In this document: one piece after another, positions 17,545 through 64,000 of the stretch
Layout: every line of letters starts with the position of its first letter
How positions within the stretch are numbered: the stretch's first letter is position 1
Assembly: GCA_029261055.1 (NCBI GenBank)
Contig: JAJDCA010000026.1
Coordinates: 5,747-69,746 of the forward strand
DNA from: Candidatus Omnitrophota bacterium
GTDB lineage: Bacteria > Omnitrophota > Gorgyraeia > Zapsychrales > Zapsychraceae
Direction of reading: 5' to 3'
Length of the DNA: 64,000 nt
The notes under the pieces: generated by a model
Told to the model about the DNA's origin: nothing
Seen by the model: only the letters and a program-made list of their open reading frames with translations
The model's database searches: none
Translations under genes and position numbers: made by a program

Positions 17545-17566
17545 GAGACGCCATTTATGGCGTCTC
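17545..17566. repeat. REP palindrome GAGACGCCATTTATGGCGTCTC between ssb and rpsR
   Basis: Identical 22-mer to 7364-7385. Confidence 0.8.
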
Positions 17567-17603
17567 ATTTAAAGTTAATTAAAAAGAGAGGAGGATAGTT
17601 ATT

Positions 17604-19645: not shown

Positions 19646-19665
19646 CAATCCGAAAAAAACATTGA

Positions 19666-19743
19666 CCGTACAGGAAAGTATAAAACTTTCCTGTCGGCAC
19701 CAAAAATACGCCGTCAGGTTGTTGCCAAAGACGATTTTCTTGG
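19666..19743 (+). promoter_or_regulatory. 78-nt conserved 5'-UTR motif with an 8-bp stem (CAGGAAAG-TATAAAA-CTTTCCTG); a second copy is at 61604-61680
   Basis: The two copies are about 85% identical, and the stem base pair covaries (C-G versus T-A). Confidence 0.5.
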
Positions 19744-19749
19744 AGAAAA

Positions 19750-22080
19750 ATGAAGAAAAAATTTTACATCTTAATACTTCTTGCTTTATCCATTTCCTTT
19801 TTTCCTGCCAAAGTATTTGCTCAGTCGATAGAAGAGCCTTCTTCTTTTGGGAACGAATCAATCGTTGTTAAAGCGATTGAAGTTGAAGGCAATAAAACTA
19901 TTAGTCTCGCAACAATTTTATCAAGAATCAAAACCCGTGTGGGGCAAAACTATATACAATCTGTCATCAGCGATGATTTGAAACGGTTATACAATACGGG
20001 GTATTTTTCTAATGTGCGTGTGGACCGGCAGGAGCATGAGGGTGGGTTCAAAGTGATTATTTATTTAGAAGAAAAGGCCATTGTTGAAGAGGTTACTTTT
20101 TCTAAAACGCGTGCACTAAACCAAAGAGCTTTTTCCAGAAAATTAAAAACGCAGGCAGGTAAATTTTTAGATAAAAAAGCTTTGCAAGATGATATAAAAA
20201 CAATTAAAGAACTTTATGCAAAAAAAGGTTTAACTCAGGCAGAAGTTGATGTGGAAACATTTGTTGATGAGGTGACAAATAAAGCAAGTTTACATTTTGT
20301 TATAAGAGAAGGGCATCGCGTTAGAATTAGGCGAATTCATATTACAGGAAATGATAGTTTTAAAGATAAAAAGATTCTACGGGTTATTAAGACACGACGG
20401 AAACTTTTTTATAGATCTGGACATCTTAAAGACGAAGTGTTGGATGAAGATATGGAACGAATTTCTTCTTTTTATGAGCAGCGAGGATTTATTGATGCGC
20501 GAGCTGAACATTCTTTAGAATATTTATATAAAGGTTACGTTGATGTTAATATTCAGATTCATGAAGGAAGTCGGTATTTTGTAGGCAGCATTGTTATTGC
20601 CGGCAATAATATTATTTCCAATCGTGAAGTTTTAAGGGTTATGGAAGAAATTGAAGAAGGTAATGTGTTTAGTCGTGAAAAGTTATCTCTTGATCTAGCG
20701 CATATTCGTACATTATATTTTGATAGAGGGTATATATTTGCCGACGTTAATGAGTCTACCGCTTTAAATCCATCTACTGGTAAAGTGGCTATAAAAATAG
20801 ATATTACGGAAGGTGGGTTAGCTTTTATCGATAAGGTTAAAATTCAGGGGAATACGCGAACAAGGGATATTGTTATCCGTCGGGAATTAAAAATGTATCC
20901 TGGGGATCGTTTTGATGGTGCAAAACTTCGACGGAGCAAAGAAAAATTGAATAATTTAGGGTATTTTGAAGATGTGAGTTTTGATCTCGAAGATGCAAGT
21001 GCGTTTGACAGGAAAGATCTTGTTGTCCAAGTGAAAGAAGCGAAGACAGGAAGTTTTAGCTTTGGTGGTGGGTTCAGTACGGTTGATCGCGTGGTAGGTT
21101 TTGTTGAGGTAGAACAAAGAAATTTTGATATTACAAATTGGCCTACATTTACAGGTGGTGGGCAGAGGCTCCAATTGCGAGCAGAAACGGGATCCACAAA
21201 AAATAATCTTTTGTTAAGTTTTACTGAACCATGGATAATGGATTATCCGATATCGGGAGGTTTTGATCTTTATCGAAGCGAAAGAGATCGAGAAAGAGAT
21301 GTTGGGTTTTCTTATGATGAAGAGAAAGCAGGGGGAGATATTCGGCTTGGAAAACGATTCACAGACTATGTTTCCGGCACGGTTTCTTATAAATTTGAAG
21401 AGGTAACCATTGAAAACTTTGAGGATAACGTAACCGCTGATTTGCTTGCTGAGGAAGGGACGAATACTGTGAGTGTTCTAGGATTTAATCTCAAAAGAGA
21501 CTCCCGGGATAGTGTGTTTAGTCCAAGAAAAGGTTTTACGGTTAATGGTGGCTTTGATATTGCTGGTGGACTTTTAGGAGGCGACAAAGATTTCTTTAGG
21601 TTGCAGGGTGGTGGGAATTATTATATGCCTTTGAAATTTAAATCAGTTTTGGAATTTCGAGCTAGAGCGGGGATTGTGGATGGTTATGGAGATGGGGAAG
21701 ATTCAAAGGTGCCTATTTTTGAAAGGTTTTTTGCTGGAGGAGCCAGAACAATTCGAGGTTTTGATGAACGGCAGGTTGGCCCATTAGATCCAAGTAATAA
21801 CGATCCTATCGGTGGTGAGGCGCTTTTGGTTGCGAATATTGAGTATACGATTCCTGTTATAGAGTTTTTGAAATTAGCTGCATTTTTTGATACGGGTAAT
21901 GTTTGGGCTGATGCTAAAGATTTTGGTTCTGGAGGTTTAAAATCTGGTGTAGGATTTGGCGCTCGTGTTAAAACGCCTATTGGACCTGTTAATTTAGATT
22001 ACGGATATCCGTTAAGTGACGAACCTGGTGAAGAAGGTAAGTCAGGAAAATTTTATTTTAGTGTAAGTCGAGGGTTTTAA
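19750..22080 (+). CDS. bamA: Outer membrane protein assembly factor BamA (five POTRA domains plus an Omp85 barrel)
   Basis: Signal peptide, POTRA-like repeats and a C-terminal barrel ending ...YFSVSRGF (aromatic terminus). Confidence 0.85.
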   Translation: MKKKFYILILLALSISFFPAKVFAQSIEEPSSFGNESIVVKAIEVEGNKTISLATILSRIKTRVGQNYIQSVISDDLKRLYNTGYFSNVRVDRQEHEGGFKVIIYLEEKAIVEEVTFSKTRALNQRAFSRKLKTQAGKFLDKKALQDDIKTIKELYAKKGLTQAEVDVETFVDEVTNKASLHFVIREGHRVRIRRIHITGNDSFKDKKILRVIKTRRKLFYRSGHLKDEVLDEDMERISSFYEQRGFIDARAEHSLEYLYKGYVDVNIQIHEGSRYFVGSIVIAGNNIISNREVLRVMEEIEEGNVFSREKLSLDLAHIRTLYFDRGYIFADVNESTALNPSTGKVAIKIDITEGGLAFIDKVKIQGNTRTRDIVIRRELKMYPGDRFDGAKLRRSKEKLNNLGYFEDVSFDLEDASAFDRKDLVVQVKEAKTGSFSFGGGFSTVDRVVGFVEVEQRNFDITNWPTFTGGGQRLQLRAETGSTKNNLLLSFTEPWIMDYPISGGFDLYRSERDRERDVGFSYDEEKAGGDIRLGKRFTDYVSGTVSYKFEEVTIENFEDNVTADLLAEEGTNTVSVLGFNLKRDSRDSVFSPRKGFTVNGGFDIAGGLLGGDKDFFRLQGGGNYYMPLKFKSVLEFRARAGIVDGYGDGEDSKVPIFERFFAGGARTIRGFDERQVGPLDPSNNDPIGGEALLVANIEYTIPVIEFLKLAAFFDTGNVWADAKDFGSGGLKSGVGFGARVKTPIGPVNLDYGYPLSDEPGEEGKSGKFYFSVSRGF

Positions 22081-23740: not shown

Positions 23741-25069
23741 ATGACTCGAAAACAGCAGACAATTAAAGAAGAATTTTCCCTTTCAGGGGTCGGTGTGCAT
23801 ACAGGATGTCAGGTACACTTGACGTGTCAGCCTGCAGGAGAAAATGAAGGGATTAACTTTATCCGCATAGATTTACCCAATAAGCCCGTTATTAAGGCTA
23901 ATTTGTCAAATGTATGTATAGATTCAAAAATTACACGATGCACATCGCTTAGATCAGGTGATGCAATCGTTCACACGGTTGAGCATATCATGAGTGTTTT
24001 ATGTGGCCTTGGCATTGATAATTTAAATATTTTGCTTGATGCCGAAGAGGTTCCTGTTTTAGATGGAAGTGGGATTGATTTTTTTAAAGCCTTTCAAAAT
24101 GTGGGCATTATTGAACAAAATGTAGAATTTCAATTTTATAAAATTATGGAACCCATTGGAGTAGAGCATAATGGATGTGCTATTTATGTTTTTCCAAGTG
24201 ATCAACTTAAAGTTTCGTATTCTCTCGACTACAAACATCCTTTTTTAGGGTCGCAGTTTTTTAATTCTATTGTTGATGAAACCGTGTATGAAAAAGAAAT
24301 TGTTTCTTGTCGGACATTTTGTTTGGAAGAGGAAGCTGATGAGTTGCGGAAGCATGGGTTAGGCAAAGGGGCTAATTATAAAAATACTTTAGTCGTTGGG
24401 GAAAAGGGGGTCAAAGAAAATCAAGTGCGTTTTCCTGATGAATTTGCCCGGCATAAAGTTCTTGATTTGATTGGAGATTTGTATTTATTAGGCATGCCTA
24501 TTCGTGGGCATATTTTTGCGACAAAAAGTGGACATGATTTAAATAGACGATTATTAAAGAAAATTTATCAGCAGAAAAAGAAATATGATAAGCGAGAAGA
24601 AAGAAGTAATTATGATTTTAACGGGAAAGAAATGGATATTCAGGGTATTATGAAGGTTTTGCCGCATCGATATCCATTTTTACTGGTTGATCGTGTCATA
24701 GAAATTGAAAAGGGGAAAAAAGCTATAGGAATTAAGAATGTTACCATGAATGATGACTTTTTTCGGGGGCATTTTCCAACACGACCTGTTATGCCGGGGG
24801 TGTTAATGGTGGAGGCTATGGCGCAGACGGCAGGGGTTATCATATTGACTAATGAGAAACATCGTGGTAAAGTATCTTTTTTTATGGCCGTGAATAATGT
24901 TAAATTTAGAAAGGTTGTTTCGCCAGGCGATCAATTGATTATGGAAGTGGAAATTGTAAAAGATAAGTCAAGAGTATCCCAAGCGAAGGCAAAGGCTAAA
25001 GTAGGTCAGGATGTCGTTGCTGAAGCTGATATGACATTTTCATTTACAGATGCTTCTTATTTAGATTAA
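23741..25069 (+). CDS. lpxC-fabZ: Bifunctional UDP-3-O-acyl-GlcNAc deacetylase / 3-hydroxyacyl-ACP dehydratase (LpxC-FabZ fusion)
   Basis: LpxC N-terminal half (FSLSGVGVHTGCQVHL ... HKVLDLIGDL) and FabZ C-terminal half (LPHRYPFLLVDRV ... FFRGHFP..PVMPGVL). Confidence 0.85.
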   Translation: MTRKQQTIKEEFSLSGVGVHTGCQVHLTCQPAGENEGINFIRIDLPNKPVIKANLSNVCIDSKITRCTSLRSGDAIVHTVEHIMSVLCGLGIDNLNILLDAEEVPVLDGSGIDFFKAFQNVGIIEQNVEFQFYKIMEPIGVEHNGCAIYVFPSDQLKVSYSLDYKHPFLGSQFFNSIVDETVYEKEIVSCRTFCLEEEADELRKHGLGKGANYKNTLVVGEKGVKENQVRFPDEFARHKVLDLIGDLYLLGMPIRGHIFATKSGHDLNRRLLKKIYQQKKKYDKREERSNYDFNGKEMDIQGIMKVLPHRYPFLLVDRVIEIEKGKKAIGIKNVTMNDDFFRGHFPTRPVMPGVLMVEAMAQTAGVIILTNEKHRGKVSFFMAVNNVKFRKVVSPGDQLIMEVEIVKDKSRVSQAKAKAKVGQDVVAEADMTFSFTDASYLD

Positions 25070-25135
25070 TTAGGAATTTCTAGCTTTAAAGAAATTCCAA
25101 AAGGGTCTAATTCCCCGAGGCTTGCCCCGAGGAGT
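25067..25135. repeat. 69-bp dispersed repeat that begins with the stop codon TAA and contains a GGAATTTCT/AGAAATTCC hairpin; identical copy at 58753-58821
   Basis: Exact 69/69 match between the two loci. Confidence 0.8.
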
Positions 25136-25148
25136 TTCACTGTATTCT

Positions 25149-31198: not shown

Positions 31199-31325
31199 TA
31201 AGAGAAGTAGAGATGTAAAGAGAAGTAAGAAGTAAAGAAGCAAGAAGCAAGAAGCAGAGAGGTAAAGAGATGAATTAACTTTTTTGTTTTTTCTCTGCAT
31301 TTTGCTGCTTGCCTCTTTGCTTCAT
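31199..31325. repeat. Purine-rich arm (GAAGTARAG.. units) plus a complementary pyrimidine-rich arm forming a long imperfect hairpin immediately 5' of the mcsA RBS
   Basis: The same architecture recurs at 46888-47008, 58828-58920 and 61556-61720. Confidence 0.6.
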
Positions 31326-36392: not shown

Positions 36393-36396
36393 TTTT

Positions 36397-36490
36397 ATTT
36401 AGGAATTTTGATGCTTTAACGAAATTCCAAACGGGTTTAATACCCCGCAGCTCGCTGCAGCTGATAGGGTTCAGGGCTTGCCTTGGGGTT
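36397..36490. repeat. Divergent copy of the post-stop hairpin repeat family (GGAATTTT...GAAATTCC, GGGTTTAATACCC, GCAGC-TC-GCTGC)
   Basis: Same architecture as 25067-25135 and 58753-58821. Confidence 0.5.
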
Positions 36491-36648
36491 CATGCCTTTG
36501 ATTTTAAGAAATATACGTTTTAAGAAAGAATTGTATCATTATCTGATAAAACAAGTTACAAAATATTTAAATTTACCTGCCTGAAAATAATTTTATAACA
36601 TGATTTATTGTAATGAGTTATGAAATTCTTCATTAAATTCCCCTCCTC

Positions 36649-36676
36649 TTGACACTTGCCAGAAATATGTTATCTT
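36649..36676 (+). promoter_or_regulatory. Promoter TTGACA-N16-TGT-TATCTT (extended -10) of the giant gene
   Basis: Aligns with TTGCCG-N16-TGT-TATCCT at 61431-61458 upstream of the paralogue. Confidence 0.5.
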
Positions 36677-36682
36677 TTCAGT

Positions 36683-36765
36683 ATATTAGTAAGAAAACGC
36701 TTTTTTCCACAAAATTGTACCAATAGCTCTGTCTATCGACAGGTAGTCCTGCCACGGATTGGTTA
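36683..36765 (+). promoter_or_regulatory. Conserved structured 5' leader (GAAAA..TTTTC hairpin; ACCAAT ... ATTGGT closing stem around an internal CTGTC-TATC-GACAG hairpin; GCCACGGATTGGT)
   Basis: Duplicated at 61465-61546. The internal hairpin is replaced there by a different palindrome, CCTGCATGCAGG. Confidence 0.5.
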
Positions 36766-36847
36766 TGAGTTGTAAATAATCAGTACATATTTATTTACAA
36801 TCTCTTAAATTTTAAAAAAATAAATGTAGAGATGTACGTCTTTAATT

Positions 36848-36868
36848 AAACGTAGCAACGCTACGTTT
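36848..36868 (+). promoter_or_regulatory. Perfect 9-bp hairpin AAACGTAGC-AAC-GCTACGTTT 10 nt upstream of the RBS of the giant gene
   Basis: Direct reading. Confidence 0.5.
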
Positions 36869-36887
36869 CTACAACATAGGAGAAGAA

Positions 36888-39800
36888 ATGAATATTTACA
36901 TAAAAAAACAACGTTTTTGTAGTATTTACAGGATTTTATCCGCATTTATTGCCGTAGCATTCTTAACCACCACCATTGTGCCGCAAGGATATGCCAATAC
37001 AGTGATCAGTGCGCCATTGTCAGGGATCAATTTGCCTGTGCCAGGTACTATGCTGGGAATGACCGAAAGTTTTACGCCGGTTATGGTTAAGGGTGTGACC
37101 ATTCATCCGGACAATCCGCTGCGGTTTGATTTTATTGTGGATACGGGAAATACAGAATTAGGTCAGGGCGATGCTTTGCAGGAAGAAACCACCAAATTGG
37201 TCAAATATTTTTTGGCCGCGTTGACAGTGCCGGAAAAAGAGATGTGGGTCAACCTCAGTCCGTATGAAAAAGATCGTATTATTGCCGATGGTCTGGGGCA
37301 AACCGATATGGGCCGCGATATGTTGGCACAAGACTATCTACTGAAACAAGTTACAGCTTCACTCATGTATCCGGAAGAAGAGCTAGGCGAAAAGTTTTGG
37401 ACGCGTGTGTATGCGCGCGCACAAGAGGAATTTGGGACAACCGATATTCCGATGAACACGTTTAATAAAGTTTGGATAGTGCCGGAAAAGGCCGTTGTGT
37501 TCGAAGATGAAAAAACATCAAGCACGTATGTGTTGGAAAGCCATTTGAAGGTCATGTTGGAAGAAGATTACGAGGCAATGGAACATAATGTGGATCGTAG
37601 GGGTTTGATTCATCAAACCCAAGATAAGGGCATGATAAATCATGCCCCTACGGATATCATCCGCGAACTCCTCATTCCCGAAATCGAAAAAGAAGTCAAT
37701 CAAGGTAAAACCTTCGCCAATTTACGTCAAATCTACAACTCCATGATCTTAGCCGCATGGTACAAACAAAACCTCAAAGACAGCCTATTAGGCAAGATCT
37801 ACATGGATCAAAACAAGACCAAAGGCATCGACACCGAAGACAAACAAATTACCCAAAAAATTTACGATCAATACATATCCTCCTTCAAAAAAGGCGTGTA
37901 TGACTACATTAAGGAAGACTATGATTCAGCTACGCAGCAAGTTGTGCCAAGAAAATATTTCTCCGGAGGGCTGAAGATGGGGATTGATCTTTCAATGTTG
38001 GATACCAAAAAAGGACGTGGAAATATTACAAGACTTGATGCAGAAAATGTGGGAGAAATTTTAAAATTTGGATACGACATGGTTGATTTAGGCATGGGTT
38101 CCGCAAAGATTGTAAAAATCAAACAGGCGATTAATAATGCAACGTATGGGGATAACTCCATGGTAGCAAGTGAACAAGGGCTGAAAATATCTCAATATAT
38201 CCGGGAGGGGTTTGATAGTGACGTGGAAAGAGAAAAAAGAGCAGCAGTTATTGAAGCACTTTATGATCATGTGGATGTTTTACGAAAACAGTTTAAATCA
38301 GCTTCAGCTGTCGCTGATCTTCCTGTTTTTTTTCGGACAATTTCAGATTATTTGGAGAATGAAGCATTTTTAGAAATATTAAAAGAAAAGGTTTTGACTG
38401 AAGAAAAATACAACACAAGAATATCGACAGAAGATGATTTTTTAAAGGTTATTGCGGAATTTAAAGAGATCTTAGAGATAAAATCTAGCAGCACGATAGT
38501 TGAATCTGGTGTTTGGACAGCAGTGGAAAAAATAGCAGAGATATCATTTTATTTTAGTGGTTTACACGAAACAAAATGGTCTGCAACTTATCATAAAAGT
38601 AACATTGCTATGTTTTTGGCAGAAGGGATCATGGCAGAGTCAAAAGATGTAGAGAAAGAAAAGAAAATAAAAGAAAACGCTCTTAATCTTCTAGAGGGTA
38701 CAAAGAGTTTGTTTGATCGTATTCTTTTGAACGAAAAAAATGAAGAGTATACAGATGTATTCAAAAACCTTAATCAAAAGTTAGTCAACAATATAAAAAT
38801 TTTAGACTTAGAAAGTGAGGCGGCGAAGTTGCAATATTCTCTTGAGGAATACGAAGAAGACCTGGATGCATTTGAAAATAATTTGAATCAACATTTATTT
38901 GATGTTTTTCAAGAATTTATGGGGGATATTCCAAAAGTGGATGGTTTTATTAAGGAAGTAAGAAAAACACTTAATAATATTCAAAATAAAACAGGGAGTA
39001 GATTGAAACTCATCGCTGAAGAATTGAATAAAGCGATTGATGCTTTGGAGTTGGATGTCGCCATGAGTACAGAGGTGACGTCGCTTTCTGACGAAGGTGT
39101 TAAGCTTACTCAATGGGATGATATGGATGAATGGATCTTGGCGGGAGGGAGTGGATGGGGTAGTACATACAATAGAGATCAGGAGATACATGATGGAAAT
39201 TCTTATTTTACTGATACAGCAATAGAAGAAATTTATTATCGAGACAAAATTAATTCTTCTGGTAAGGTTATGGTTATAAAACTTAAATTAAAGGTTATAG
39301 AAACAATAGTTAAAGATAAAAAAATAGACATTAATGTTCCAGAGGTGATTATTGAAACAAATGAGAATAAAGAATTTGATATTGTTGTGAACGCTGATAA
39401 AAGAAAAATAAATTTTATGATTTGGAAGGCAAAATATAATATTACGATTGTTTTTAAGGATTCTAATAGTGAATTTCAAAAAATATTTTTAAATTTTGAT
39501 AAATATCAAAATATTATGAAAAATCCCGAGTCTTTTCGTAAAATTATACAGGATAAATTTATAGCAAGTGAGTATCTGGTGAAGTTAGTAGAAGAAAAAC
39601 TTGGGGAGATAGTGCAAGATGCTACAAATTCTCTTGATCCGATAGAGCTGAACAGTATTATGTCTGAAATTAATAATGTTAAAGAAATTTTGACCCAAGA
39701 AAAGGAAAATACAGAATTCTTAAATAAAATAAAACAAAAATTAAAAAATTTATTTTTAGCTATGGGGTCAGTTAATAGGCGGAAGAAGATAGAATTTATT

Positions 39801-42800
39801 GATGCTAGAAAGGCGCTTAACGAAATCCCGGAGATTCTTGGTTTAGGGAAGATTGATTTTCATTCTGAGGCGTATGATGATGCCATGCTGACGGATGAAG
39901 GAAAAAAGAAAATTAGAACGGAGCGGGTCATCAATGGGCTTTTAGATCTTGTGGTTCCGGAGAGTTTAAAAGAAAGCGGCTTGGAGGGGGTAAGGGGCGT
40001 TATTACGCAAGTAGTTAACATAATGGAAAAAGAATGGAGTGTAAAATATTTAGAGGATACGGCATCAAAACTTGAAAAACAATTTGATGATAAATTCGCA
40101 GAAACGGAAGAAATATCAGAGAGTTATGCGCATGTAATTAAGATGTTGGAAAAAGAACATGATACTCTTGATAACGATGGAAGAGCCGTTCAACATGATT
40201 TGATTCAAACACAATTTTCTGAACTGATTGAGTCCGCAATTAATGCGTATAATGATGTTGGCAAATCGTATGCGAGATCAAAAAATATTATTTTAATATT
40301 TAGAGACGAAATAAATAGAATCCAAGTAGAAAATGAAACGAAACAATTAAAAGAAAGTGATTTTAAGAAAATAATCCATAAGGCGTTGAAGGCTACTTTT
40401 CAAAATACGCTAACGGAGGTAAGTAAGGAAAATAAAGATGCATTTGTCATCTTAAATTTTAGAACTTTAATAGATGTCATTAAAAATAAAGTGGATTCTA
40501 TTATCGAAAATATTGATGGTGACGATGAAATAGGGGAAAAAATTTATGAAATATTCAAGAATCCTCCTATGTCGGAAGCGGAGAAGGATAAGGTAGTATT
40601 CGAAGTGATTTATCCTGGGATCTTTCAATTGACAGAATATAAATTAAGTCATTCAGGTTTTGAGAAATTTCCTCACTTAGGTTTTGAGAGTCAGCCCGAA
40701 GAACTCTTTGAGGCTCTTTTTAAAAAAGTTAATAAGTCCAATTATGTGACGATACCTGTAGGGAGGTTTAGTCCGGAAGGGGACATCATTCAAAATGCTA
40801 TGAAAAGTCTTGTCGAGACAGGACAAGCCATAATTGACGGTGACATAATTGGTTTGGATGAGCCGATAGAGACAGGGTTTAAGGCAAATGATAAAGATGA
40901 TTTAGAGGACATCAGGGGAATTATGCATAACATAAAGGTTAAATTTGATAATATTACGAAGAATTTTGAGGAAAGAATTCAAAAATCAAAAGGTTTTGGC
41001 GGTAATGATCAAATTCGAGATGATTTAAAGGAATTTATTTCTAAGAATGAAATGTCTCCTTATTTGATAAGATCGATTGCGAGTATATTTGACTACATAA
41101 TCAATCATTATCTCACTGTTGGTTCAGAGCTTGATAATTCTTTTTACGAATTAGCGCATGGTTTAAATATGAGGATTGTCGGTATTAAAAAAGATGGTCA
41201 TAAGATTTTTGTAGAAGCATGGGGTAAACACGGAGCCATTTATAAGTGGAGAGAATGGACAGATGACTTGGCGAAGGATATTGCTAAGGATACTATTGAA
41301 ATAATTCATCAGAGTAAGGACAGGTCTATGGCCACAGGAAAATTGGTTGCTTTTAAGGTGCAAAAAAAATATGGGGAAGGCAATTCTCTGAAAGTAGGAG
41401 AGGCTGTTATTGAAAAGTTAAGAGAGCAAGGCGTTACACTTTCTGATTTTAATGATTTTACGATTACTTTAAAGGGAAATCTGGGGGATGGGAAGAGTAG
41501 GGCGATTAGTATTAAATTTGCCGATGTTTCTTTTTCACAGGATGACGGCGCAGTTCATATTAAAAGTAGTGACCATTTTTTGGCATGGGAGCAAAGTTTA
41601 GATGACACTAGTGTGGAGTTTGAAGGACATTTAAAGGATGATAAAGATAATACGATAAAGAGTGAGGTCTCCGATAGTTCCATGATTGTGGAAGAGTGGA
41701 TTGGAAAGAAAATTGTTGGATGGGTTATGAATGAGAAGGCGGATCCAGAAGTTAACTTTATAAAGATGGATGCTTTATTGGAGTATCTTAAAGGGGAAGA
41801 TATTATTTCTTTTCCTGAAACTGAAGATTTGCGTGCATTTTTGTTAGAGTATGGTGCTGAAAGTACGGATGTTAAGGTCGAAGGGACCAATGAAATGTTT
41901 TATGTTTCTCAATTTAAAGGGCAGGAATTTTTAGCCTGGAATCAAAGTGTAAAACTTTACAAGTCGTTAATGGTTTTTACGCATATGGATGGTATTCCGC
42001 AAGAAGATTGGGGTAGCCCTGTTCAATTTTTATTTCATTATTTAAAGGTAAAAAAAGAAAAAAGGGACGGATTTGTTAGGAAAATTTTAGAAATAATTCT
42101 AAAAGAAAATGGTTTGTATCAGGAATCATTGAGCGATGTGCAAATTGTGGGTAAAGTAAGACCCATCCTTCAAAAAATTGAAAAAACTTTTGAGCCTAAT
42201 GAGACAGTTGTTAAGGGGGTGTTCTATACAGAATTAGTTCAGTTTTCAGAAGGTTTAAAAAAAGAAGAAAACGGAAATATTTATCCTGATGAGTTGATGA
42301 AACGGCATATTGACGCCGTTATTTCTCGCCTCATGGAAGGGCGCGTATTTGAGCGTATTTCTTTTTTATTAGATAAATACCGAATGAATAATACAAATTT
42401 AAAAGGTTTGAATACGATATTAAAGTGGGTGACCGAAAAACAAGAAGACAATGCCATGAGGTCTGAAGGGCGGGAAAAGATTGAGGCTATTGCGGATGAG
42501 GTGAAAAAACGGCTAAATTCTAAAGAATATGTGGATGTGTTACGGTTATTTAATAGATTTTTGAACGTACATCAGGAAATGAAAACAAAATGGGAAGAAG
42601 AGGTATTGCCTGAGGTGACTCTTGAAAATGAAAGAGATCTCTTAAGATGGAGTTTTAAAGATAATTTAGAAAAGATGTTAAATATTTTGGAAATCATGAG
42701 AGATAAAATTGTTTATAATAATGAGTATTATGCGTATGAATCTCAAGAAACCATAGGTGTGTTCGTCAATGAATGGGATGGGCAAGGTAAAATGTCGCTT

Positions 42801-44075
42801 TTTACGACAGGTGATATACTTCATGATATGGAGTTAGTCGTAAGAGACGTGGTGATTGGCGGTATGATTGAAAAAGTATTAAACGAAGAAAAAATTATCT
42901 TAGTGTCAGGAGATATGCCGATAAATAAAGTCGATATTCATGATATGGAATTGAAGGGTGAAGCTAGCTATGATGAAATACTAGAAAGATTAAATCATAA
43001 TCTTAACGCATTCAATAAAAGTAGGCCTATTAAAATAAATGGCTATTCTGTTTTTCATGTTGATGATGTGGCCAGAATTTTATTTTCTTTGAAAGGAAAG
43101 AGGAAAAAGGGTGAGAAAATTAATAGAAGAAAGAAGAAAATAAATATGCCTTTTTCACATAAAAAGTTGTCTAATTTTGTGTATGACGCGTATAAAACGA
43201 AATATGTAAAAAAATACACAAGAATAGAAAAAATGGAGTTGGGGTGGATACGAGAGAAATTAGAGAATTTTGAGCTGTTGGAAAAGAAAGATTTCGATGT
43301 AGTTCTTAATATTGAGAGACTCGATGGTGAGCTTAGAAGAAAGCTTAATGAAAAAATTAATGTTTTGTTTGGAAGTGAAATTAAGCTGGACAATAATCTT
43401 AAGAAAGATACTAAATTGGATATTATTAAGGCTATTCGATGGGATACATTCTTTAGCGTGGTTGATTCTATTGTTACGAGGAAGGATTCTCGAGTAGATG
43501 GTGGGACCATAGATATGGCGGTAGATATTTATCAAGAGTATGTTAAAAAAAGAGAGAGTATCTTTATTAATATTGAGGTAAAGGCTTTGTTGGCGGATGT
43601 GCCCATGCTTGACAAACAAGGCATTGAATATGCTTTGGACAATATTATTTTATTGGGGCAGCGGGGAAGAATAATTGTTCCGGGGTTGTATGGTGAACGT
43701 TTTTATGAGCTTTTAGAATCAGCCAGAGTTATTGGAGCAATCGACCGTGCAATGTTCGAGATGACAGGTGAGGTCGAAAAACAAGTTAATAAAATTAAGA
43801 AGGTCGGTGGTATTAACCTTGATGCGGCGATGTTGGATTTGCAGATTAGGCGGGACGGGAATGGGGTGCCGTTGCCGGTTGCGGAGCAGGATTTCTCAAC
43901 GATACATATTGAAGGAGTTTTTCCGGTTTTTATTAATGCGACGCCAGTGAGTATTCCTCTCCTGTTGGGTTTTGCGGATGAAGCCGTTCCTGTCGGGTGT
44001 CCGTCTGATGAAGAAAGTCTCCATTGTGACCAAGCTTTGATTTTCAGTAAGCCGGAAGAAGAGATTGTTTTGTAG
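36888..44075 (+). CDS. Giant 2395-aa protein. A signal peptide/anchor and a conserved roughly 360-aa N-terminal module precede an AT-rich Lys/Glu/Asn/Ile-rich region of about 2000 aa of unknown function
   Basis: One continuous ORF with RBS AGGAG. The N-terminal module is roughly 75-90% identical to the N-terminus of the ORF starting at 61738. Confidence 0.8.
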   Translation: MNIYIKKQRFCSIYRILSAFIAVAFLTTTIVPQGYANTVISAPLSGINLPVPGTMLGMTESFTPVMVKGVTIHPDNPLRFDFIVDTGNTELGQGDALQEETTKLVKYFLAALTVPEKEMWVNLSPYEKDRIIADGLGQTDMGRDMLAQDYLLKQVTASLMYPEEELGEKFWTRVYARAQEEFGTTDIPMNTFNKVWIVPEKAVVFEDEKTSSTYVLESHLKVMLEEDYEAMEHNVDRRGLIHQTQDKGMINHAPTDIIRELLIPEIEKEVNQGKTFANLRQIYNSMILAAWYKQNLKDSLLGKIYMDQNKTKGIDTEDKQITQKIYDQYISSFKKGVYDYIKEDYDSATQQVVPRKYFSGGLKMGIDLSMLDTKKGRGNITRLDAENVGEILKFGYDMVDLGMGSAKIVKIKQAINNATYGDNSMVASEQGLKISQYIREGFDSDVEREKRAAVIEALYDHVDVLRKQFKSASAVADLPVFFRTISDYLENEAFLEILKEKVLTEEKYNTRISTEDDFLKVIAEFKEILEIKSSSTIVESGVWTAVEKIAEISFYFSGLHETKWSATYHKSNIAMFLAEGIMAESKDVEKEKKIKENALNLLEGTKSLFDRILLNEKNEEYTDVFKNLNQKLVNNIKILDLESEAAKLQYSLEEYEEDLDAFENNLNQHLFDVFQEFMGDIPKVDGFIKEVRKTLNNIQNKTGSRLKLIAEELNKAIDALELDVAMSTEVTSLSDEGVKLTQWDDMDEWILAGGSGWGSTYNRDQEIHDGNSYFTDTAIEEIYYRDKINSSGKVMVIKLKLKVIETIVKDKKIDINVPEVIIETNENKEFDIVVNADKRKINFMIWKAKYNITIVFKDSNSEFQKIFLNFDKYQNIMKNPESFRKIIQDKFIASEYLVKLVEEKLGEIVQDATNSLDPIELNSIMSEINNVKEILTQEKENTEFLNKIKQKLKNLFLAMGSVNRRKKIEFIDARKALNEIPEILGLGKIDFHSEAYDDAMLTDEGKKKIRTERVINGLLDLVVPESLKESGLEGVRGVITQVVNIMEKEWSVKYLEDTASKLEKQFDDKFAETEEISESYAHVIKMLEKEHDTLDNDGRAVQHDLIQTQFSELIESAINAYNDVGKSYARSKNIILIFRDEINRIQVENETKQLKESDFKKIIHKALKATFQNTLTEVSKENKDAFVILNFRTLIDVIKNKVDSIIENIDGDDEIGEKIYEIFKNPPMSEAEKDKVVFEVIYPGIFQLTEYKLSHSGFEKFPHLGFESQPEELFEALFKKVNKSNYVTIPVGRFSPEGDIIQNAMKSLVETGQAIIDGDIIGLDEPIETGFKANDKDDLEDIRGIMHNIKVKFDNITKNFEERIQKSKGFGGNDQIRDDLKEFISKNEMSPYLIRSIASIFDYIINHYLTVGSELDNSFYELAHGLNMRIVGIKKDGHKIFVEAWGKHGAIYKWREWTDDLAKDIAKDTIEIIHQSKDRSMATGKLVAFKVQKKYGEGNSLKVGEAVIEKLREQGVTLSDFNDFTITLKGNLGDGKSRAISIKFADVSFSQDDGAVHIKSSDHFLAWEQSLDDTSVEFEGHLKDDKDNTIKSEVSDSSMIVEEWIGKKIVGWVMNEKADPEVNFIKMDALLEYLKGEDIISFPETEDLRAFLLEYGAESTDVKVEGTNEMFYVSQFKGQEFLAWNQSVKLYKSLMVFTHMDGIPQEDWGSPVQFLFHYLKVKKEKRDGFVRKILEIILKENGLYQESLSDVQIVGKVRPILQKIEKTFEPNETVVKGVFYTELVQFSEGLKKEENGNIYPDELMKRHIDAVISRLMEGRVFERISFLLDKYRMNNTNLKGLNTILKWVTEKQEDNAMRSEGREKIEAIADEVKKRLNSKEYVDVLRLFNRFLNVHQEMKTKWEEEVLPEVTLENERDLLRWSFKDNLEKMLNILEIMRDKIVYNNEYYAYESQETIGVFVNEWDGQGKMSLFTTGDILHDMELVVRDVVIGGMIEKVLNEEKIILVSGDMPINKVDIHDMELKGEASYDEILERLNHNLNAFNKSRPIKINGYSVFHVDDVARILFSLKGKRKKGEKINRRKKKINMPFSHKKLSNFVYDAYKTKYVKKYTRIEKMELGWIREKLENFELLEKKDFDVVLNIERLDGELRRKLNEKINVLFGSEIKLDNNLKKDTKLDIIKAIRWDTFFSVVDSIVTRKDSRVDGGTIDMAVDIYQEYVKKRESIFINIEVKALLADVPMLDKQGIEYALDNIILLGQRGRIIVPGLYGERFYELLESARVIGAIDRAMFEMTGEVEKQVNKIKKVGGINLDAAMLDLQIRRDGNGVPLPVAEQDFSTIHIEGVFPVFINATPVSIPLLLGFADEAVPVGCPSDEESLHCDQALIFSKPEEEIVL

Positions 44076-45507: not shown

Positions 45508-46887
45508 ATGAAAACTAAGACCTTATTTGTTTGTCAAGAATGTGGGACGCAATCGCCGCGATGGGTGGGGAAGTGTTCGGGCTGTAATAGCTGGAATTCT
45601 TTTGTAGAGGAAAGTGTTGTGTCAAGTCGTCCTGGAAAAGGGGCGGGATTTTTAAAGGACGAGCCTGTTTTATTGACGGATGTTGTGATTGATCACGAAA
45701 AACGGTTGATGACGGGCATAGGGGAATTTGATACGGTTTTAGGGGGTGGTGTTGTACCGGGATCGGTAACGCTTATTGGCGGTGATCCAGGTATTGGAAA
45801 ATCGACTTTGTCGCTTCAAGCGGCATGTGCTTTAAGTCAAAAAAAACACAAGGTTCTTTACATCAGCGGGGAGGAATCTGTCAAACAGTCGCGCATGCGA
45901 GCCCAGCGTTTAATGGGGGCTATGGATGGGGCTGCTGAAGAAGCGATGAGTTCGCTGTACATTGTTAATCAGGTGGACTTAGATATTATTTTAGAATACA
46001 TAAAAAAAATGAAGCCGGCGGTTGTGGTGATTGATTCTATTCAGGTGATGGGCTGTTCATCTGTAGCTTCTTCTCCGGGGAGTGTTAGCCAGGTGAGAGA
46101 ATGTTCGGCGATGTTAACGCAGTCGGCTAAGTCTTTGGGCATATCATTATTTATTATTGGTCATGTCACTAAGGAAGGTATGTTGGCTGGTCCACGCGTG
46201 TTAGAACATATTGTGGATACGGTATTGTATTTTGAAGGGGAACGTTATTCTACGTATCGGGTTTTGCGGGCCACTAAAAATCGTTTTGGATCGACGAATG
46301 AAATCGGTGTGTTTGAAATGGTGTCTACGGGGTTAGCCGAAGTGCCTAATCCATCGGAAATATTTTTATCTGAGCGTCCTCATGATGCGAGTGGTTCTGT
46401 GGTGGTTCCAATTATGGAAGGAACACGGCCTTTGCTTATTGAGGTGCAAGGATTGGTCAGTCGTGCCAGTTATGGAATCGCCCGCCAGAAGAGCCAGGGC
46501 TTTGATAGCAATCGTTTAGCTTTGCTTGTTGCTGTTTTGGAAAAAAGGATCGGTTTGAATTTGCAAGATCAAGATGTTTTTCTCAATATGGTCGGTGGTG
46601 TTAAAGTGGTGGACCCGGCCGCTGATCTAGCGGTTACAGTGGCTATTGCTTCTGCTTTTTTAGATAAGCCAGTTCCTTTTGATACGGCCGTTTTGGGGGA
46701 AGTGGGTTTATCATCGGAAGTACGCAGTGTTAGTCAGATACTGTCGCGCATTAATGAGGCTGCCAAATTAGGTTTTAAGAGATGCATCCTTCCTAAAAAT
46801 AATTTGAAAGCAGGGATTGATTTAAAAAAACAAAACTTAGAAATTGTCGCTGTAGAAAGTGTCCGGGAAGCACTGGATAAGTTGTGA
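45508..46887 (+). CDS. radA: DNA repair protein RadA
   Basis: N-terminal C4 zinc finger CQECGTQSPRWVGKCSGCNSWNS; Walker A GDPGIGKST; KNRFG motif; C-terminal Lon-like domain. Confidence 0.9.
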   Translation: MKTKTLFVCQECGTQSPRWVGKCSGCNSWNSFVEESVVSSRPGKGAGFLKDEPVLLTDVVIDHEKRLMTGIGEFDTVLGGGVVPGSVTLIGGDPGIGKSTLSLQAACALSQKKHKVLYISGEESVKQSRMRAQRLMGAMDGAAEEAMSSLYIVNQVDLDIILEYIKKMKPAVVVIDSIQVMGCSSVASSPGSVSQVRECSAMLTQSAKSLGISLFIIGHVTKEGMLAGPRVLEHIVDTVLYFEGERYSTYRVLRATKNRFGSTNEIGVFEMVSTGLAEVPNPSEIFLSERPHDASGSVVVPIMEGTRPLLIEVQGLVSRASYGIARQKSQGFDSNRLALLVAVLEKRIGLNLQDQDVFLNMVGGVKVVDPAADLAVTVAIASAFLDKPVPFDTAVLGEVGLSSEVRSVSQILSRINEAAKLGFKRCILPKNNLKAGIDLKKQNLEIVAVESVREALDKL

Positions 46888-47008
46888 AAAAAAAGAAGTA
46901 AAGAAGCAGAGAGGCAAGAGGTAAAGGTACAAGAAGTAAAGAGGTAAGAGGCAGAGGTTAAAGTTTTTTCTTTGCTTCTCTATTTCTTACTCCTCTGCTT
47001 CTTTTAAC
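46888..47008. repeat. Purine-rich / pyrimidine-rich hairpin repeat directly 5' of the RBS of the PIN-TRAM gene
   Basis: GAAGTAAAGAAGCAGAGAGGCAAGAGGTAAAG ... CTTTGCTTCTCTATTTCTTACTCCTCTGCTTCTT. Confidence 0.6.
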
Positions 47009-58088: not shown

Positions 58089-58755
58089 AGCTTCAACACG
58101 AAATTACAGCTTGGCGGTTTCCGATGAGGAAAAGGTTGTTGCTTACAAAAATTTTAGACTTAAGAATGTGCTTTCATCATCCGTCATGCCGGGCATCAAA
58201 AGTGTTTTAGATAAATCTGGAATTCCGCTCAATAAATTGGATGGGTTTGCGGTGGGATTAGGTCCAGGGTCGTTTACCGGTTTGCGTGTGGGATTAGCAA
58301 CGATACAAGGGCTTATTTTTGCCACGCAAAAACCTGTGGTGGGTATTTCCAGTTTAGATATTTTAGCGGCCAACGTCACTACAGAGGTGGAGCAAATTTG
58401 TGTCATCACGGATGCCAAGCGTAGCATGGTGTTTTCATGTGTGTACCAACGGAAAGGATCTCAGCTCAAGAAGCTAAGCCCGTATGTTTTAGCACCGGTC
58501 GAAGATGCCCTTAAAAATATTAGCGGCGCAACGATTTTTGTTGGGGATGGTATTGCTTTGTATCACGAGCGAGTTGTGCAGTTTTGTCGTGGAAAATTTG
58601 CCATTACGTTTGCCGCAGAAAAATTATGGAGCCCTCAAGCCCGGCGAGCTGTTCCTTTAGTTTTAGAAAGATTTCGTCAGAAAAAAGTCGACAAGATTGA
58701 AAAGTTATTACCTTTGTATTTGTATCCAGAAGATTGTCAAGTTAGGAGAAGTTAA
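58069..58755 (+). CDS. tsaB: tRNA threonylcarbamoyladenosine biosynthesis protein TsaB
   Basis: YeaZ-like N-terminus; tsaE-tsaB order. Confidence 0.75.
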
Positions 58756-58821
58756 TTAGGAATTTCTAGCTTTAAAGAAATTCCAAAAGGGTCTAATTCC
58801 CCGAGGCTTGCCCCGAGGAGT
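58753..58821. repeat. Second identical copy of the 69-bp post-stop hairpin repeat; it supplies the tsaB stop codon
   Basis: 69/69 identical to 25067-25135. Confidence 0.8.
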
Positions 58822-58827
58822 GTCATT

Positions 58828-61310: not shown

Positions 61311-61430
61311 ATTTCTTTATTTGAAGGGGTATTGGGACTTTTTCATAAAATAATTAAAATATTTTTTTAATAAAACTGTAACTAATTGGTATTAAATATG
61401 TTGTAGTAAGAATTATTTGACCTCCCACCC

Positions 61431-61458
61431 TTGCCGATTGTCCAGAATATGTTATCCT
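61431..61458 (+). promoter_or_regulatory. Promoter TTGCCG-N16-TGT-TATCCT, paralogous to 36649-36676
   Basis: Alignment of the two leaders. Confidence 0.45.
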
Positions 61459-61464
61459 TTCAGC

Positions 61465-61546
61465 GTACAACGTAAGAAATCGGTTTCTTAACAATATCCT
61501 ACCAATAAAGGCCTGCATGCAGGTTTTAACCTCGCCACGGATTGGT
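61465..61546 (+). promoter_or_regulatory. Second copy of the conserved structured leader (hairpin GAAA-TCGG-TTTC; ACCAAT ... CCTGCATGCAGG ... GCCACGGATTGGT)
   Basis: Aligned with 36683-36765; covarying internal hairpin. Confidence 0.5.
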
Positions 61547-61555: not shown

Positions 61556-61720
61556 AAAGAAGTAAGAATCAAGGTGTAGAGAATTAGGTAATTATTTTTT
61601 TTACCGCATAGGAAAGCATAAAACTTTCCTATCGGCATTGAAAATACGCCTTCAGGTTATCGCCAAAGGCGATTTTCTTGTTTCTCTACCTCGTATTCCT
61701 CTACTTCTTTCTTTACTTAA
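61556..61720. repeat. Purine arm (61556-61587) and pyrimidine arm (61681-61720) of the hairpin-repeat family, here enclosing the bamA-type 78-nt motif
   Basis: AAGAAGTAAGAATCAAGGTGTAGAGAA versus TTCTCTACCTCGTATTCCTCTACTTCTT. Confidence 0.55.
61604..61680 (+). promoter_or_regulatory. Second copy of the bamA 5'-UTR motif
   Basis: About 85% identical to 19666-19743. Confidence 0.5.
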
Positions 61721-61737
61721 CCCAAGGAGAAAATCCA

Positions 61738-64000
61738 TGAATACAACTATTCACAAATACAAAACCCGTCTTTATTACCGAATATTTTCTGCCTTTGTGG
61801 CGGTGGCATTTTTGACAACGACTATTGTGCCGCGGGGTTTTGCGCAGAATGTGTCTGTGCCTGCGCCAATAGGTGTCAACTTGCCGGCTGTAGGTAGTCT
61901 GGTGACGGCCAGTGAGGCCTTTACGCCTACCATGATTAAAGGTTTAACCATTCATCCGGAGAATCCGTTGCAATTTGATTTTATTGTGGATACGGGGAAT
62001 ACCGGCCTGAAGCAAGGGCAAGCATTGAAGGATGAAACCACCAAATTGGTGAAATATTTTTTGGCATCGTTGACTGTTCCCGAAGATGAAATGTGGGTCA
62101 ATTTGAGTCCGTATGAAAGTGATCGTATTATTGCCGAAGGATTAGGGCAAACGGATATGGGGCGCGACATGTTAGCCCAGGATTATTTGCTCAAACAGCT
62201 CACCGCTTCCTTGATGTATCCGGAAGAAGAGTTGGGAAATACATTTTGGCAAAGAGTGTATGAGCGGGCGTATGAAGAGTTTGGTGTCACGGATATTCCG
62301 ACGAATACATTTAACAAAGTATGGATTGTGCCGGAGAAGGCTGTGATTTACGAACAAGCTGAGACGGCGAGCACGTATGTGTTGGAGAGTCATTTGAAGG
62401 TGATGTTGGAGGAGGATTATGTCGCGATGGAGAACGCGGATCGTAGGGGTTTGATTCATCAAACCCAAGAAAAGGGCGTGATGAATCACGCCCCTACGGA
62501 TATTATTCGCGAATTGCTTATTCCCGAAATCGAACGCGAAGTCAACGAAGGCAAGACCTTTGCCAATCTACGCCAAATCTACAATTCCATGATCCTGGCC
62601 GAGTGGTACAAGCACAATCTCAAAGAATCATTGTTAGGGCAAGTGTATGTCGGGCAAAACAAAATTAAGGGTATTAATACCGAAGACAAAGACATAGCTC
62701 AAAAAATTTACAATCAATACATCAAATCATTTAAGACAGGCGTCTACGACTACATCCGCGAAGACTACGACCCTGCGACCAATCAAATCATCCCAAGAAA
62801 ATATTTCTCTGGAGGGATCCTTCGAGCGAAACGCTCCATGTTCACCGTACTCACGGATGCTGCCGAGATAAGCGCAACCCAAGCCGACGATCTATTCTAC
62901 TTAGGAACTCCTCAATACCTCGCCCCCGTCGACATGGCCGAACTAGGAACAGATGCGGCCGAAGTGATGGAAATTGAACGTGCGTTGAGAAATACGAAAT
63001 CTATTAAAACAGCCTTAACAGATGCATCAATGATGGAAAGAAAAGTATCAAAAAAAAGTTTAGCTCTATTAAAAAAACTTAAAAACAAGAAAAATGTATC
63101 AATCCTTGTTGCAGAAGATGATCCTCGAATGGCTAAAAATATTGAGAATCATTTTTCTAAAGATAAAAAGTATTCTATTACAATTGCACGCGAAGGAATT
63201 TCTTTTTTTGCTTTTGCGCACAATAAACCAGAGAGCTTTGATGTAATTGTTTCAGACGTTAGTTTGCCTTCTATGAGCGGTATTGAAGTTGCAAAAAAAT
63301 TACATAAGGAGGATAAGCTTGATACCCCCATACTAATTATGACTGGGTATGATATAGACAAAATTGAAGAAAATGCGCCGCCTAATGTCATTAAGGTGTT
63401 TTCTAAGCGTGTGTTTGGGGGGTCTGTTTTTAAAGATATTCAGAATTTTATTGAAGGAAAAGAAAACGAAGCTGACGACGCCATGTCGTCAAATACAAAG
63501 AAATTTAAAGGAAACATTTTAAGCAAGATTAAGGGATATTCTAATAGTCGAAATGCTTATCAGCAATTGGCCTATTATTATGAAGATGAAATACGTCGGG
63601 TGCGGAATGCTTCGGGTTTTTTGTTTTTCATTAAACCTATCTGGATAACTTATTTGAAGGCAAAAGCGGTAGGTTCTTACAAGAAAGTTATTGAGCTTGA
63701 GAAGGGGGATGTAAATAAATATAAAACGTATGAAGATTTCTCGAAATATTTTGGTGGTCGTAAGGCAGCCACGAAGGATCTTGATCTTGCACGTGATATC
63801 GTCACAAAGCATTTTTTAAATAGGTATGCTAAGCGAAAGGGTCTAGGGTTAATTTCTGTGAATGAAAGTGTTAATTTTCCGCATTACATTGTTGGTAAGT
63901 ATTCTGTAGAAGATGCTGCACGTTCTGTGACTAATAGTAATTTGAATATTTTTACTCATGATTATGGTGATCAAAAGGCTAAGGTCGCCTTGGTAACGGC
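61738..64000 (+). CDS. Partial giant protein (3' end runs beyond the window): paralogous N-terminal module, then a CheY-like receiver (REC) domain at about 63095-63410, then an AT-rich K/E-rich region
   Basis: ATG 61738 with RBS AAGGAG and no stop before the window end. The N-terminus MNTTIHKYKTRLYYRIFSAFVAVAFLTTTIVP ... matches 36888. REC motifs are ILVAEDD, DVIVSDVSLPSMSG, ILIMTG and KVFSKRV. Confidence 0.8.

Follow-up and report, generated by a model that had tools for sequence, protein, structure and literature searches.

The leaders of two paralogous genes, here called A and B, are tentatively explained as a series of three separate signals rather than as one aptamer, namely a promoter, an operator and an 11-mer acting at the RNA level, and we give this composite reading a probability of roughly 45%. 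Both genes are located on a stretch of 64,000 nucleotides (nt) of contig JAJDCA010000026.1 from a Candidatus Omnitrophota bacterium (assembly GCA_029261055.1), which is called the window in the following, and both begin with the same conserved N-terminal module, the head. Most economically, the repeated unit would be the usual front end of the family and represent the 5' end of two old paralogues, each copy being its own transcription unit, in which an extended -10 promoter, a family-specific control region, a hydrophobic helix and the head of ~330 residues follow each other. The palindrome AGAAAnCGnTTTCT, which occupies roughly +10 to +25 in the inferred transcript, would serve as operator for a LacI/GalR-type regulator acting as a roadblock repressor. 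Further downstream, the RNA UCCUGCCACGG may fold into a tiny hairpin of CC/GG pairs around a UGCCAC loop. It is flanked by a helper hairpin that differs between lineages; here it is also enclosed by an ACCAAU/AUUGGU stem. A trans-acting protein would recognise the 11-mer on the nascent RNA and govern how the longer members of the family are elongated or translated. The duplication, its selective conservation, the family and the enrichment, orientation and position of the motifs are shown below; which factors bind, and how they affect expression, is what we infer from these patterns.

Two old paralogues with conserved upstream blocks

Over residues 1-361, the heads of A and B share 77% of their amino acids (aa) and 74% of their nucleotides in pairwise alignment, which agrees with the 75-90% amino-acid identity given in the original prediction, and the SAF(I/V)AVAFLTTTIVP helix, already noted there as a shared anchor, is indeed common to both. 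Identity drops to 52% at third codon positions and to 49% at the four-fold degenerate sites of identical codons; hence, the duplication is old. In itself it is ordinary paralogy. Two details had to be corrected. The ATG of B is at 61737, not at 61738, and the description as two giant proteins fits A with its 2395 aa, but not B, which has 945 aa at full length.

The similarity also reaches upstream, as had been proposed. Approximately 125 nt 5' of the genes can be aligned blockwise (36640-36765 in A, 61422-61548 in B), and the blocks appear in the order -35/extended -10, GAAA...TTTC palindrome (GTAAGAAA...TTTC), TACCAATA, inner hairpin and GCCACGGATTGGT. Around the -10 element, 22 of 23 positions are identical, and the GCCACGGATTGGT block is the same in both copies at 13 of 13 positions. 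Nothing aligns from the conserved blocks to the start codon, a distance of ~120 nt in A and ~190 nt in B. Because four-fold sites are just 49% identical, the 13/13 and 22/23 blocks are not neutral leftovers; the conservation of the 5' part of the leader next to a free 3' part indicates that selection, not recency, is behind the upstream similarity. It is supported that this similarity is functional and that it extends beyond the source genome.

Promoter, palindrome and 11-mer upstream of head genes

The family sample comprised 142 related loci, each anchored on the head start codon. The top-enriched signal 5' of the head genes in these loci is a block of the TATGnTATAnTT type, with a TTG ~17 nt further upstream. 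In the window, copy A (TTGACA-N16-TGtTATCTT) was detected in a promoter scan with 10/12 consensus matches plus the TG, while copy B (TTGCCG-N16-TGtTATCCT) is below the threshold of the simple scan and was read from the sequence as aligned with A. The exact TATGTTATCTTT of the extended -10 in A recurs upstream of head genes in L001, L027 and L053, and in L070 the promoter block is TGTTATCTTT. We therefore regard the block around the -10 as the family promoter, apparently of the sigma-70-type with extended -10; the -35/extended -10 elements originally described for both copies were confirmed and recur across metagenome-assembled genomes (MAGs). In many loci the promoter is located only 17-60 nt from the ATG, so that long leaders are a minority. 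A sigma-54 promoter, on either strand, was rejected upon inspection since the GG-N10-GC spacing is unmet.

The second element is a palindrome whose core GAAANCGNTTTC has 27 sites in 1.13 Mb, 21 of which are found within 400 nt upstream of head start codons, compared to 1.3 expected (~16-fold). It is placed 15-25 nt after the -10 in winA, winB, L031, L053, L044, L014, L012, L057 and L005. In L036, L050, L063, L067, L072, L076 and L077 it precedes the best -10 match by 35-50 nt. As the palindrome occurs on either side of the -10 and its outer positions are often unable to pair (AGAAA...TTTCC), it is better described as a DNA site than as an RNA hairpin. The GAAA-loop-TTTC hairpin originally assumed in the RNA is accordingly replaced by a DNA palindrome, which in other genomes also stands upstream of the best -10 match and would there not be part of a transcript from that promoter, with start sites deduced from the consensus.

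Operators of the LacI family have the shape of a 14-bp palindrome around a conserved central CG (PMC2978694), and the palindrome described here, likewise 14 bp with a central CG, matches this LacI/GalR operator shape. In L070 a LacI-family gene (2282-3460; E 3e-30 to E. coli PurR) is found directly upstream of the head gene, which itself has the promoter TTGACA-N17-TGTTATCTT followed by the cre-like palindrome TGTAAGCGCTTTCA. Furthermore, the palindrome resembles the cre consensus TGWAANCGNTNWCA. It is thus probably a member of the LacI-type operators, i.e. of a kind that includes the cre sites of CcpA and the PurR box. It has in common with them the 14-bp palindrome with central CG and AAnCGnTT core, the position just downstream or upstream of a sigma-70 promoter and, in L070, the LacI-family gene by the head gene. 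Unlike in those systems, the palindrome has (A/G)GAAA as its outer half-site and a degenerate copy in A, and its operator role is predicted from the sequence.

The third of the upstream elements is the 11-mer. All 11 exact copies of TCCTGCCACGG in 1.14 Mb (both strands) are found on the sense strand within 400 nt upstream of head start codons, whereas 0.27 would be expected there (~40-fold enrichment). The corresponding loci are winA, L015, L016 (same sequence as L088), L024, L084, L086, L122, L090, L092 and L098; variants exist in winB (CCTCGCCACGG), L031, L130 and L081. The 11-mer is invariably located downstream of a recognisable -10, ~5-65 nt into the inferred transcript, and it is kept among loci whose heads are only ~55% identical. 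Motif-bearing genes for which 6 kb of flank are available all encode more than 2350 aa (4/4), compared to 13/48 of those without the motif (Fisher P=0.009).

The helical surroundings of the 11-mer differ between lineages. In type I (L016, L090, L086/L122), a stem AGACRUU/AAUGUCU encloses CC[UGCCAC]GG, then a hairpin; the neighbouring helices covary (GGGUC/GACCC to GGACC/GGUCC, and G.U to A-U in the closing stem), compensatory changes that rest on essentially three independent sequences. In type II (L015, L024, L084, L092, L081), the 11-mer is followed by a hairpin with varying stem (CAGG/CCUG, CGGAU/AUCCG) and then by GAAGCAnUGC and AAUCCCAA, without a closing stem. In the window, a hairpin precedes the 11-mer and ACCAAU/AUUGGU closes the unit. 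Across lineages, the 11-mer is the sole widely shared leader element, while order and number of the helices differ. A sequence that does not vary, a fixed strand, a position within the transcript and changing helical surroundings are expected for a hairpin loop recognised by a protein. These properties of the 11-mer would be equally compatible with a signal in the non-template strand like ops (PMC12691694), and they are not those expected of a ligand-binding aptamer. We regard the 11-mer as a new leader motif that would be functionally analogous to ops, LoaP and boxB-type signals, without sequence relation to them.

In two lineages, the region of the ribosome-binding site (RBS) is strongly complementary to the 11-mer, i.e. 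in L090 (CCGUGGAGGAU, -17.2 kcal/mol) and L084 (GGCAGGAU, -14.6), both with P<0.005 versus shuffles. This argues that the 11-mer matters as RNA in at least those lineages. Pairing between 11-mer and RBS as a general mechanism was rejected, because it holds just for these two. Guanidine-II-like ACGR loops and CsrA GGA sites were also rejected, since on inspection they are not conserved across lineages. A search with the 11-mer string gave no relevant paper among the top-ranked literature matches.

Separately, part of leader A (36749-36766) shares an exact identity of 18 nt, CTGCCACGGATTGGTTAT, with 4159-4176 (also 1063-1080 and 7161-7173). The partner is a repeated ...AATDWLLD... coding segment of the repeat open reading frame (ORF) 231-7388, and the chance expectation is estimated as ~2e-4. 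A leader peptide was considered as well, as one frame ends in ...ATDW(L)-stop in either leader, and was dismissed: A is without a start codon in that frame, and the frame is not kept in other lineages.

Weighing the explanations for the leader

Several points weigh against the composite reading. All transcript positions are deduced from consensus promoter matches. The CC/GG mini-hairpin is present in 7/14 minimum-energy leader folds, and in type-II leaders it is too weak for prediction. RBS complementarity to the 11-mer is absent in A, B and elsewhere beyond L084 and L090. The association with gene length comes from n=4 genes, three of them from one MAG, and the independent lineages with the 11-mer are few (~nine distinct loci). 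The 11-mer occurs in ~10% and the palindrome in ~20% of the family leaders, so most family members have to be controlled differently. Moreover, B carries a two-mismatch variant of the 11-mer, and the palindrome of A is degenerate, with TTTTTT for TTTCTT. Finally, a LacI-family gene adjoins the head gene in just 1/142 loci, and no regulator gene adjoins A or B according to the scan of the window genes, LacI-family included.

Among the alternatives, the one that survives best, although we consider it unlikely, is that the 11-mer acts as non-template-strand DNA in the transcription bubble. Like ops, it would make RNA polymerase pause and bring in a specialised NusG paralogue for processive antitermination on very long genes. 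The motif indeed shares with ops/RfaH and with the LoaP leader hairpin the character of a short, invariant and orientation-specific signal in the transcribed leader of long units: it has 11 nt, is strictly sense, stands at variable distance from the promoter (~+5 to +65), can form a very small hairpin of two pairs and, with n=4, is associated with genes for more than 2350 aa. However, its sequence differs from both ops (GGCGGTAGnnTG) and LoaP (a UNCG hairpin), no NusG-like gene was found in the window or in the flanks of the 142 loci (1.1 Mb), and leader terminators are not enriched. The covarying flanking helices and the pairing of the motif with the RBS in two lineages also point to RNA rather than to DNA in the bubble.

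Somewhat less probable still is the assumption that the leader (~36686-36765) forms one structured cis-regulatory RNA, riboswitch-like or an attenuator as originally suggested, in which the stem, the inner hairpin and a GCCACGG junction would respond to a ligand or factor and thereby regulate a downstream terminator or the RBS. The ACCAAT...ATTGGT stem with differing inner hairpins is present in both copies, and 96-98% of the shuffles of the respective segment are less stable than the inner hairpin itself (P=0.04 and 0.024). The stem itself never varies: being identical in both copies it carries no covariation signal. Whole-leader folds gave z values of -3.5 and -3.9, but the conserved leader segment of 94 nt folds no better than shuffles (z 0.0 and -0.5), and the closing stem has a pairing probability of 0.98 in B and just 0.3-0.4 in A. 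As neither the stem nor either of the inner hairpins has another occurrence in the window or the loci, independent support for the structure proposed in the window is limited to the stability of the inner hairpins.

Further comparisons did not strengthen the case for a single structured RNA. The scan detected a terminator-like hairpin in leader B and none in A; the distal hairpins of leader A have no counterpart in B and were not called as terminators. Among all leaders, terminator-like hairpins are not enriched with the motif (4/14 motif leaders versus 23/120 controls). Rfam gave no relevant match, neither for the whole window at the gathering threshold nor for both leaders at E<=10. Type-I leaders elsewhere do resemble a closed two-hairpin junction with some covariation, but a covariance-model search with the type-I leader model (R1) found only its own training sequences. 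In addition, only the contiguous 11-mer is shared between the lineages, the hairpin stands before the motif here and after it in types I and II, and the GAAA...TTTC element, which would have to be the P1 hairpin, is also found upstream of the best -10 match.

A true riboswitch does precede one head gene. In L098, a cyclic di-GMP (c-di-GMP) riboswitch of the c-di-GMP-I-GGC type (891-1046; 61.7 bits versus a threshold of 59) with a terminator is located upstream of the 11-mer leader, which points to a control of at least one family member by c-di-GMP. In a scan of 40 metagenome loci (L080-L119) at the gathering threshold, no other locus had a known riboswitch, and Rfam over 47 locus entries plus the window reported only tRNAs and this c-di-GMP-I riboswitch. 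The non-coding 5' region of L098 (820-1480, ~650 nt) contains, in this order, a palindrome, a promoter, the riboswitch with its terminator, a second similar promoter, a second palindrome and the 11-mer. Compared to riboswitch leaders such as that of L098, the leaders of the family similarly have a conserved 5' segment and then variable hairpins before the start codon. They differ in that a constant architecture of several helices, conserved nucleotides scattered over the junctions and a match in Rfam are all missing.

It is also rather improbable that a transcription factor or a site-specific recombinase binds the 11-mer as double-stranded DNA, the hairpins around it being incidental. Such a site would be consistent with the conservation of sequence rather than structure and with the varying structural context. 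Nevertheless, at least 13 instances, variants included, are all on the sense strand downstream of a -10, an orientation that a symmetric roadblock does not need; the 11-mer is not palindromic, no recombinase is found near A or B, and the motif is not placed at the head/tail junction, as an exchange of cassettes would require. The absence of any dedicated function, with the upstream similarity being a remnant of duplication or gene conversion or belonging to the small palindromic repeats of the genome, is very improbable: several families of short palindromic repeats do occur in the window, one of them forming distal leader B (D14), and a palindromic element even sits inside the head coding sequence, but the blocks are far more conserved than four-fold sites, the sequence between blocks and gene is unrelated, the window has no further occurrence of the inner hairpins or the 11-mer, and the ~16-fold (palindrome) and ~40-fold (11-mer) enrichment upstream of homologues in unrelated MAGs largely refutes it.

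Returning to the composite reading of promoter, operator and RNA-level 11-mer, its parts are of different novelty. Probably new is the family-wide invariant leader motif of 11 nt, and the family defined by head and C-terminal module is uncharacterised; the operator-like palindrome is probably of a known kind.

Features of the window and the head protein family

Table 1. Coordinates of the elements belonging to copies A and B in the window.
Feature	Positions	Strand	Details
Promoter A	36649..36676	+	-35 TTGACA 36649-36654; 16-nt spacer; TG 36668-36669; -10 TATCTT 36671-36676
Palindrome A, AGAAAACGCTTTTTT	36692..36706	unstranded	degenerate copy of (A/G)GAAAnCGnTTTC(C/T), just downstream of the inferred start
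Leader element A	36719..36763	+	ACCAAT 36719-36724; CTGTC-TATC-GACAG 36729-36742; 11-mer 36747-36757; ATTGGT 36758-36763
11-mer TCCTGCCACGG (RNA UCCUGCCACGG) in A	36747..36757	+	possible mini-hairpin CC[UGCCAC]GG
Distal leader A, non-conserved	36770..36868	+	hairpins TTGTAAATAA/TTATTTACAA 36770-36800 and AAACGTAGC/GCTACGTTT 36848-36868
Gene A	36888..44075	+	2395 aa, identical to P0121
A head	36888..37970	+	hydrophobic helix aa 12-30, then alpha/beta domain ending PRKYFSGG
Compound palindrome in head coding sequence	37596..37652 (A), 62442-62498 (B)	+	codes RRGLIHQTQDKGMINHAPT in A; variable loop with low predicted local distance difference test (pLDDT) score
C-terminal module of A, conserved, GGINLDAAMLDLQIRRDGNGVPLPVAEQDFSTIHIEGVFPVFINATPVSIPLLLG	43806..43970	+	~55 residues
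Promoter B	61431..61458	+	TTGCCG 61431-61436; 16-nt spacer; TG 61450-61451; TATCCT 61453-61458
Palindrome B, AGAAATCGGTTTCT	61475..61488	unstranded	exact GAAANCGNTTTC core at 61476
Leader element B	61501..61546	+	ACCAAT 61501-61506; inner hairpin GGCCTGCATGCAGG 61510-61523; CCTCGCCACGG 61530-61540; ATTGGT 61541-61546
Distal leader B	61600..61683	+	81-nt two-hairpin module; second hairpin 61659-61673 plus T-tract TTTCTTGTTT, terminator-like
Gene B	61737..64000, ends at window edge	+	full length 945 aa = P0123, identical over the window part
B head	61737-62816	+	

Besides the leaders, the window contains several repeated elements (coordinates of the main features are given in Table 1). The compound palindrome of the head coding sequence has the form CGTAG-[GGGTTTGAT tc ATCAAACCC]-aagaNaa-[GGGC(A/G)TGAT Na ATCA(T/C)GCCC]-CTACG and is in frame in both heads. 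It is ~93% identical between A and B, against 49% at neutral sites, and shows one compensatory change from A:T to G:C. Related copies are found at 9847-9872 and 9886-9910 in the intergenic stretch 9847-9915; the element is present in the paralogue P0122 and absent from P0125. It may be an insertion similar to the Rickettsia palindromic elements or an RNA structure within the coding sequence. Like those elements, it is in frame in a disordered loop and has intergenic relatives; unlike them, it was seen here in just three loci and is at most a candidate for a mobile element.

The two-hairpin module of distal leader B has a second copy at 19662-19742, in the 5' region of ORF 19750-22080, which is followed by an OmpH-like gene. 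This copy is 85% identical to 61600-61680 and shows one compensatory change from C-G to U-A; the first hairpin also occurs upstream of the L086 head gene (1159-1185). The 81-nt module had no match in Rfam. Another repeat of 74 nt, with two inverted repeats, stands directly 3' of three unrelated genes (25066-25139, 36396-36469, 58752-58825), and one of its copies closely precedes leader A. Two of the copies share 99% of their positions, and the third matches the reference copy at 61%; the repeat may be a terminator or an element of the repetitive extragenic palindromic (REP) type. The palindrome AGACGCCATTTATGGCGTCT is clustered at 7365-8002, downstream of the repeat ORF, with one more at 17546-17574 after an ssb-like gene. 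Purine-rich imperfect repeats (GAAGTAAAGAAGCAAGAAGC...) are intergenic, at 31204-31265 before a UVR-motif protein gene at 31284 and at 46878-46954 before ORF 47022.

The left part of the window (1-7388) is occupied by a very long ORF with internal repeats of ~3 kb and 80-84% identity, rich in LVGYWKLDE...DDVRIYNRALS units, which look concanavalin/LamG-like. Repeat copies at 1-94 and 121-271 suggest that it continues past the left end of the window. It has a C-terminal hydrophobic anchor and is outside the head family. The neighbouring genes are housekeeping genes: A is preceded by genes similar to mcsA, mcsB and clpC and followed by an AAA_14/DUF4143 ATPase gene and then a gene for a RadA-like protein, and B is preceded by alr, tsaE, tsaB and a PIN-domain gene.

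The head domain of ~330 residues has a fold without solved relative, and the head probably represents a conserved N-terminal module that is exported or membrane-anchored. A head query retrieved more than 1300 proteins in the 90%-clustered database, mostly partial, and nearly all named matches are labelled Candidatus Omnitrophota or Omnitrophica. An exhaustive search of 50%-identity representatives resulted in 8081 clusters at E<=1e-3 and 6235 clusters at E<=1e-30. Going by these matches, the family appears restricted to Omnitrophota, very large and uncharacterised. The head is at or near the N-terminus in 150/150 of the representatives listed, and the proteins have ~600-5000 aa. The search for further copies, advised with the original prediction, gave five more paralogues with 68-81% identity, probably from the same genome as A and B, and at least 572 stretches encode the head in species-representative genomes, with several per MAG (for example five head stretches of DATDQB01 among the best 80). 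The recurrence of the conserved head probably contributes to the breaks of these genes in metagenome assemblies, considering that the majority of database members are partial.

Downstream of the head, the sequences are highly diverse, only 25/5565 tail pairs sharing at least 30% of the shorter tail. The idea of a conserved head on swappable tails is supported as far as the joining of the head to very diverse sequences in many paralogues goes, export being probable. The tails are nevertheless not wholly unrelated as first stated, since A and B (P0123) share a C-terminal module with 39% identity over 103 aa (E 3e-16). The AT-richness ascribed to both tails applies clearly only to A (GC content 0.33-0.35, compared to ~0.39-0.42). 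In the loci, 48 ORFs including A carry GGIDLNPxLLDLQIKRDGNGVPLP...IEGFxPVIINITPVxNLPLLLG 60-100 residues before the stop. The module, which had no Pfam match, is placed near the end of most complete family members and is followed by a short acidic tail; the 47 further ORFs are from L001-L134. Many head genes are located directly 3' of an ORF ending in this module, i.e. they form tandem arrays. The family architecture is therefore head, variable body and conserved C-terminal module, often in tandem arrays. The bodies carry signalling-type domains such as receiver (REC), ankyrin and HAD; in B, the REC domain covers aa 456-541.

The proposed likeness to polymorphic secreted effectors holds in part. 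As in the toxins and effectors of the CdiA, Rhs, LXG and MafB kinds, a conserved N-terminal module is combined with diverse downstream sequence, in many paralogues and frequent tandem arrays. In contrast to them, the C-terminal tip is conserved, the gene next to A encodes the AAA_14/DUF4143 ATPase instead of a cognate immunity protein, and the bodies contain REC, ankyrin and HAD domains instead of recognised toxins. Giant proteins with ORFs of >90 kb have been reported from Omnitrophota, of either glycosyl-hydrolase/NUDIX/SecA-like (Archaeovorin) or dockerin/TSP3 (Dockerin) composition (bioRxiv 10.1101/2023.11.21.568195). These giants resemble the head family in phylum, in being long, poorly annotated and membrane-associated and in mixing domains of 'cytoplasmic type', and they exceed 30,000 aa compared to ~600-5000 aa here. 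Pfam domains of the Archaeovorin and Dockerin types are absent from A and B. A term search of three Omnitrophota papers for N- and C-terminal features (bioRxiv 10.1101/2023.11.21.568195, PMC10066038, bioRxiv 10.64898/2026.06.07.730766) found no description of the head and C-terminal module.

The findings give structure to ~8000 sequence clusters of unannotated protein, which can now be described by an N-terminal head and a short C-terminal module and which exist in several to many copies per genome. Omnitrophota are uncultivated, ultra-small and probably host-dependent bacteria, and a role in attachment or predation is ascribed to their long, unannotated proteins of the envelope. It is conceivable, albeit unlikely, that UCCUGCCACGG is the recruitment signal of a hitherto unrecognised, phylum-specific control of elongation or translation, exerted by a NusG paralogue or another RNA-binding factor, which would license full-length expression of long surface-protein genes; head and C-terminal modules would then be a new export or anchoring system for a hypervariable repertoire in the interaction with host or prey. 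In any case, two family-specific regulatory signals are now searchable genome-wide and directly testable. If it is true that the 11-mer recruits an elongation factor, it would bear on the question of how the very long genes of Omnitrophota become fully transcribed.

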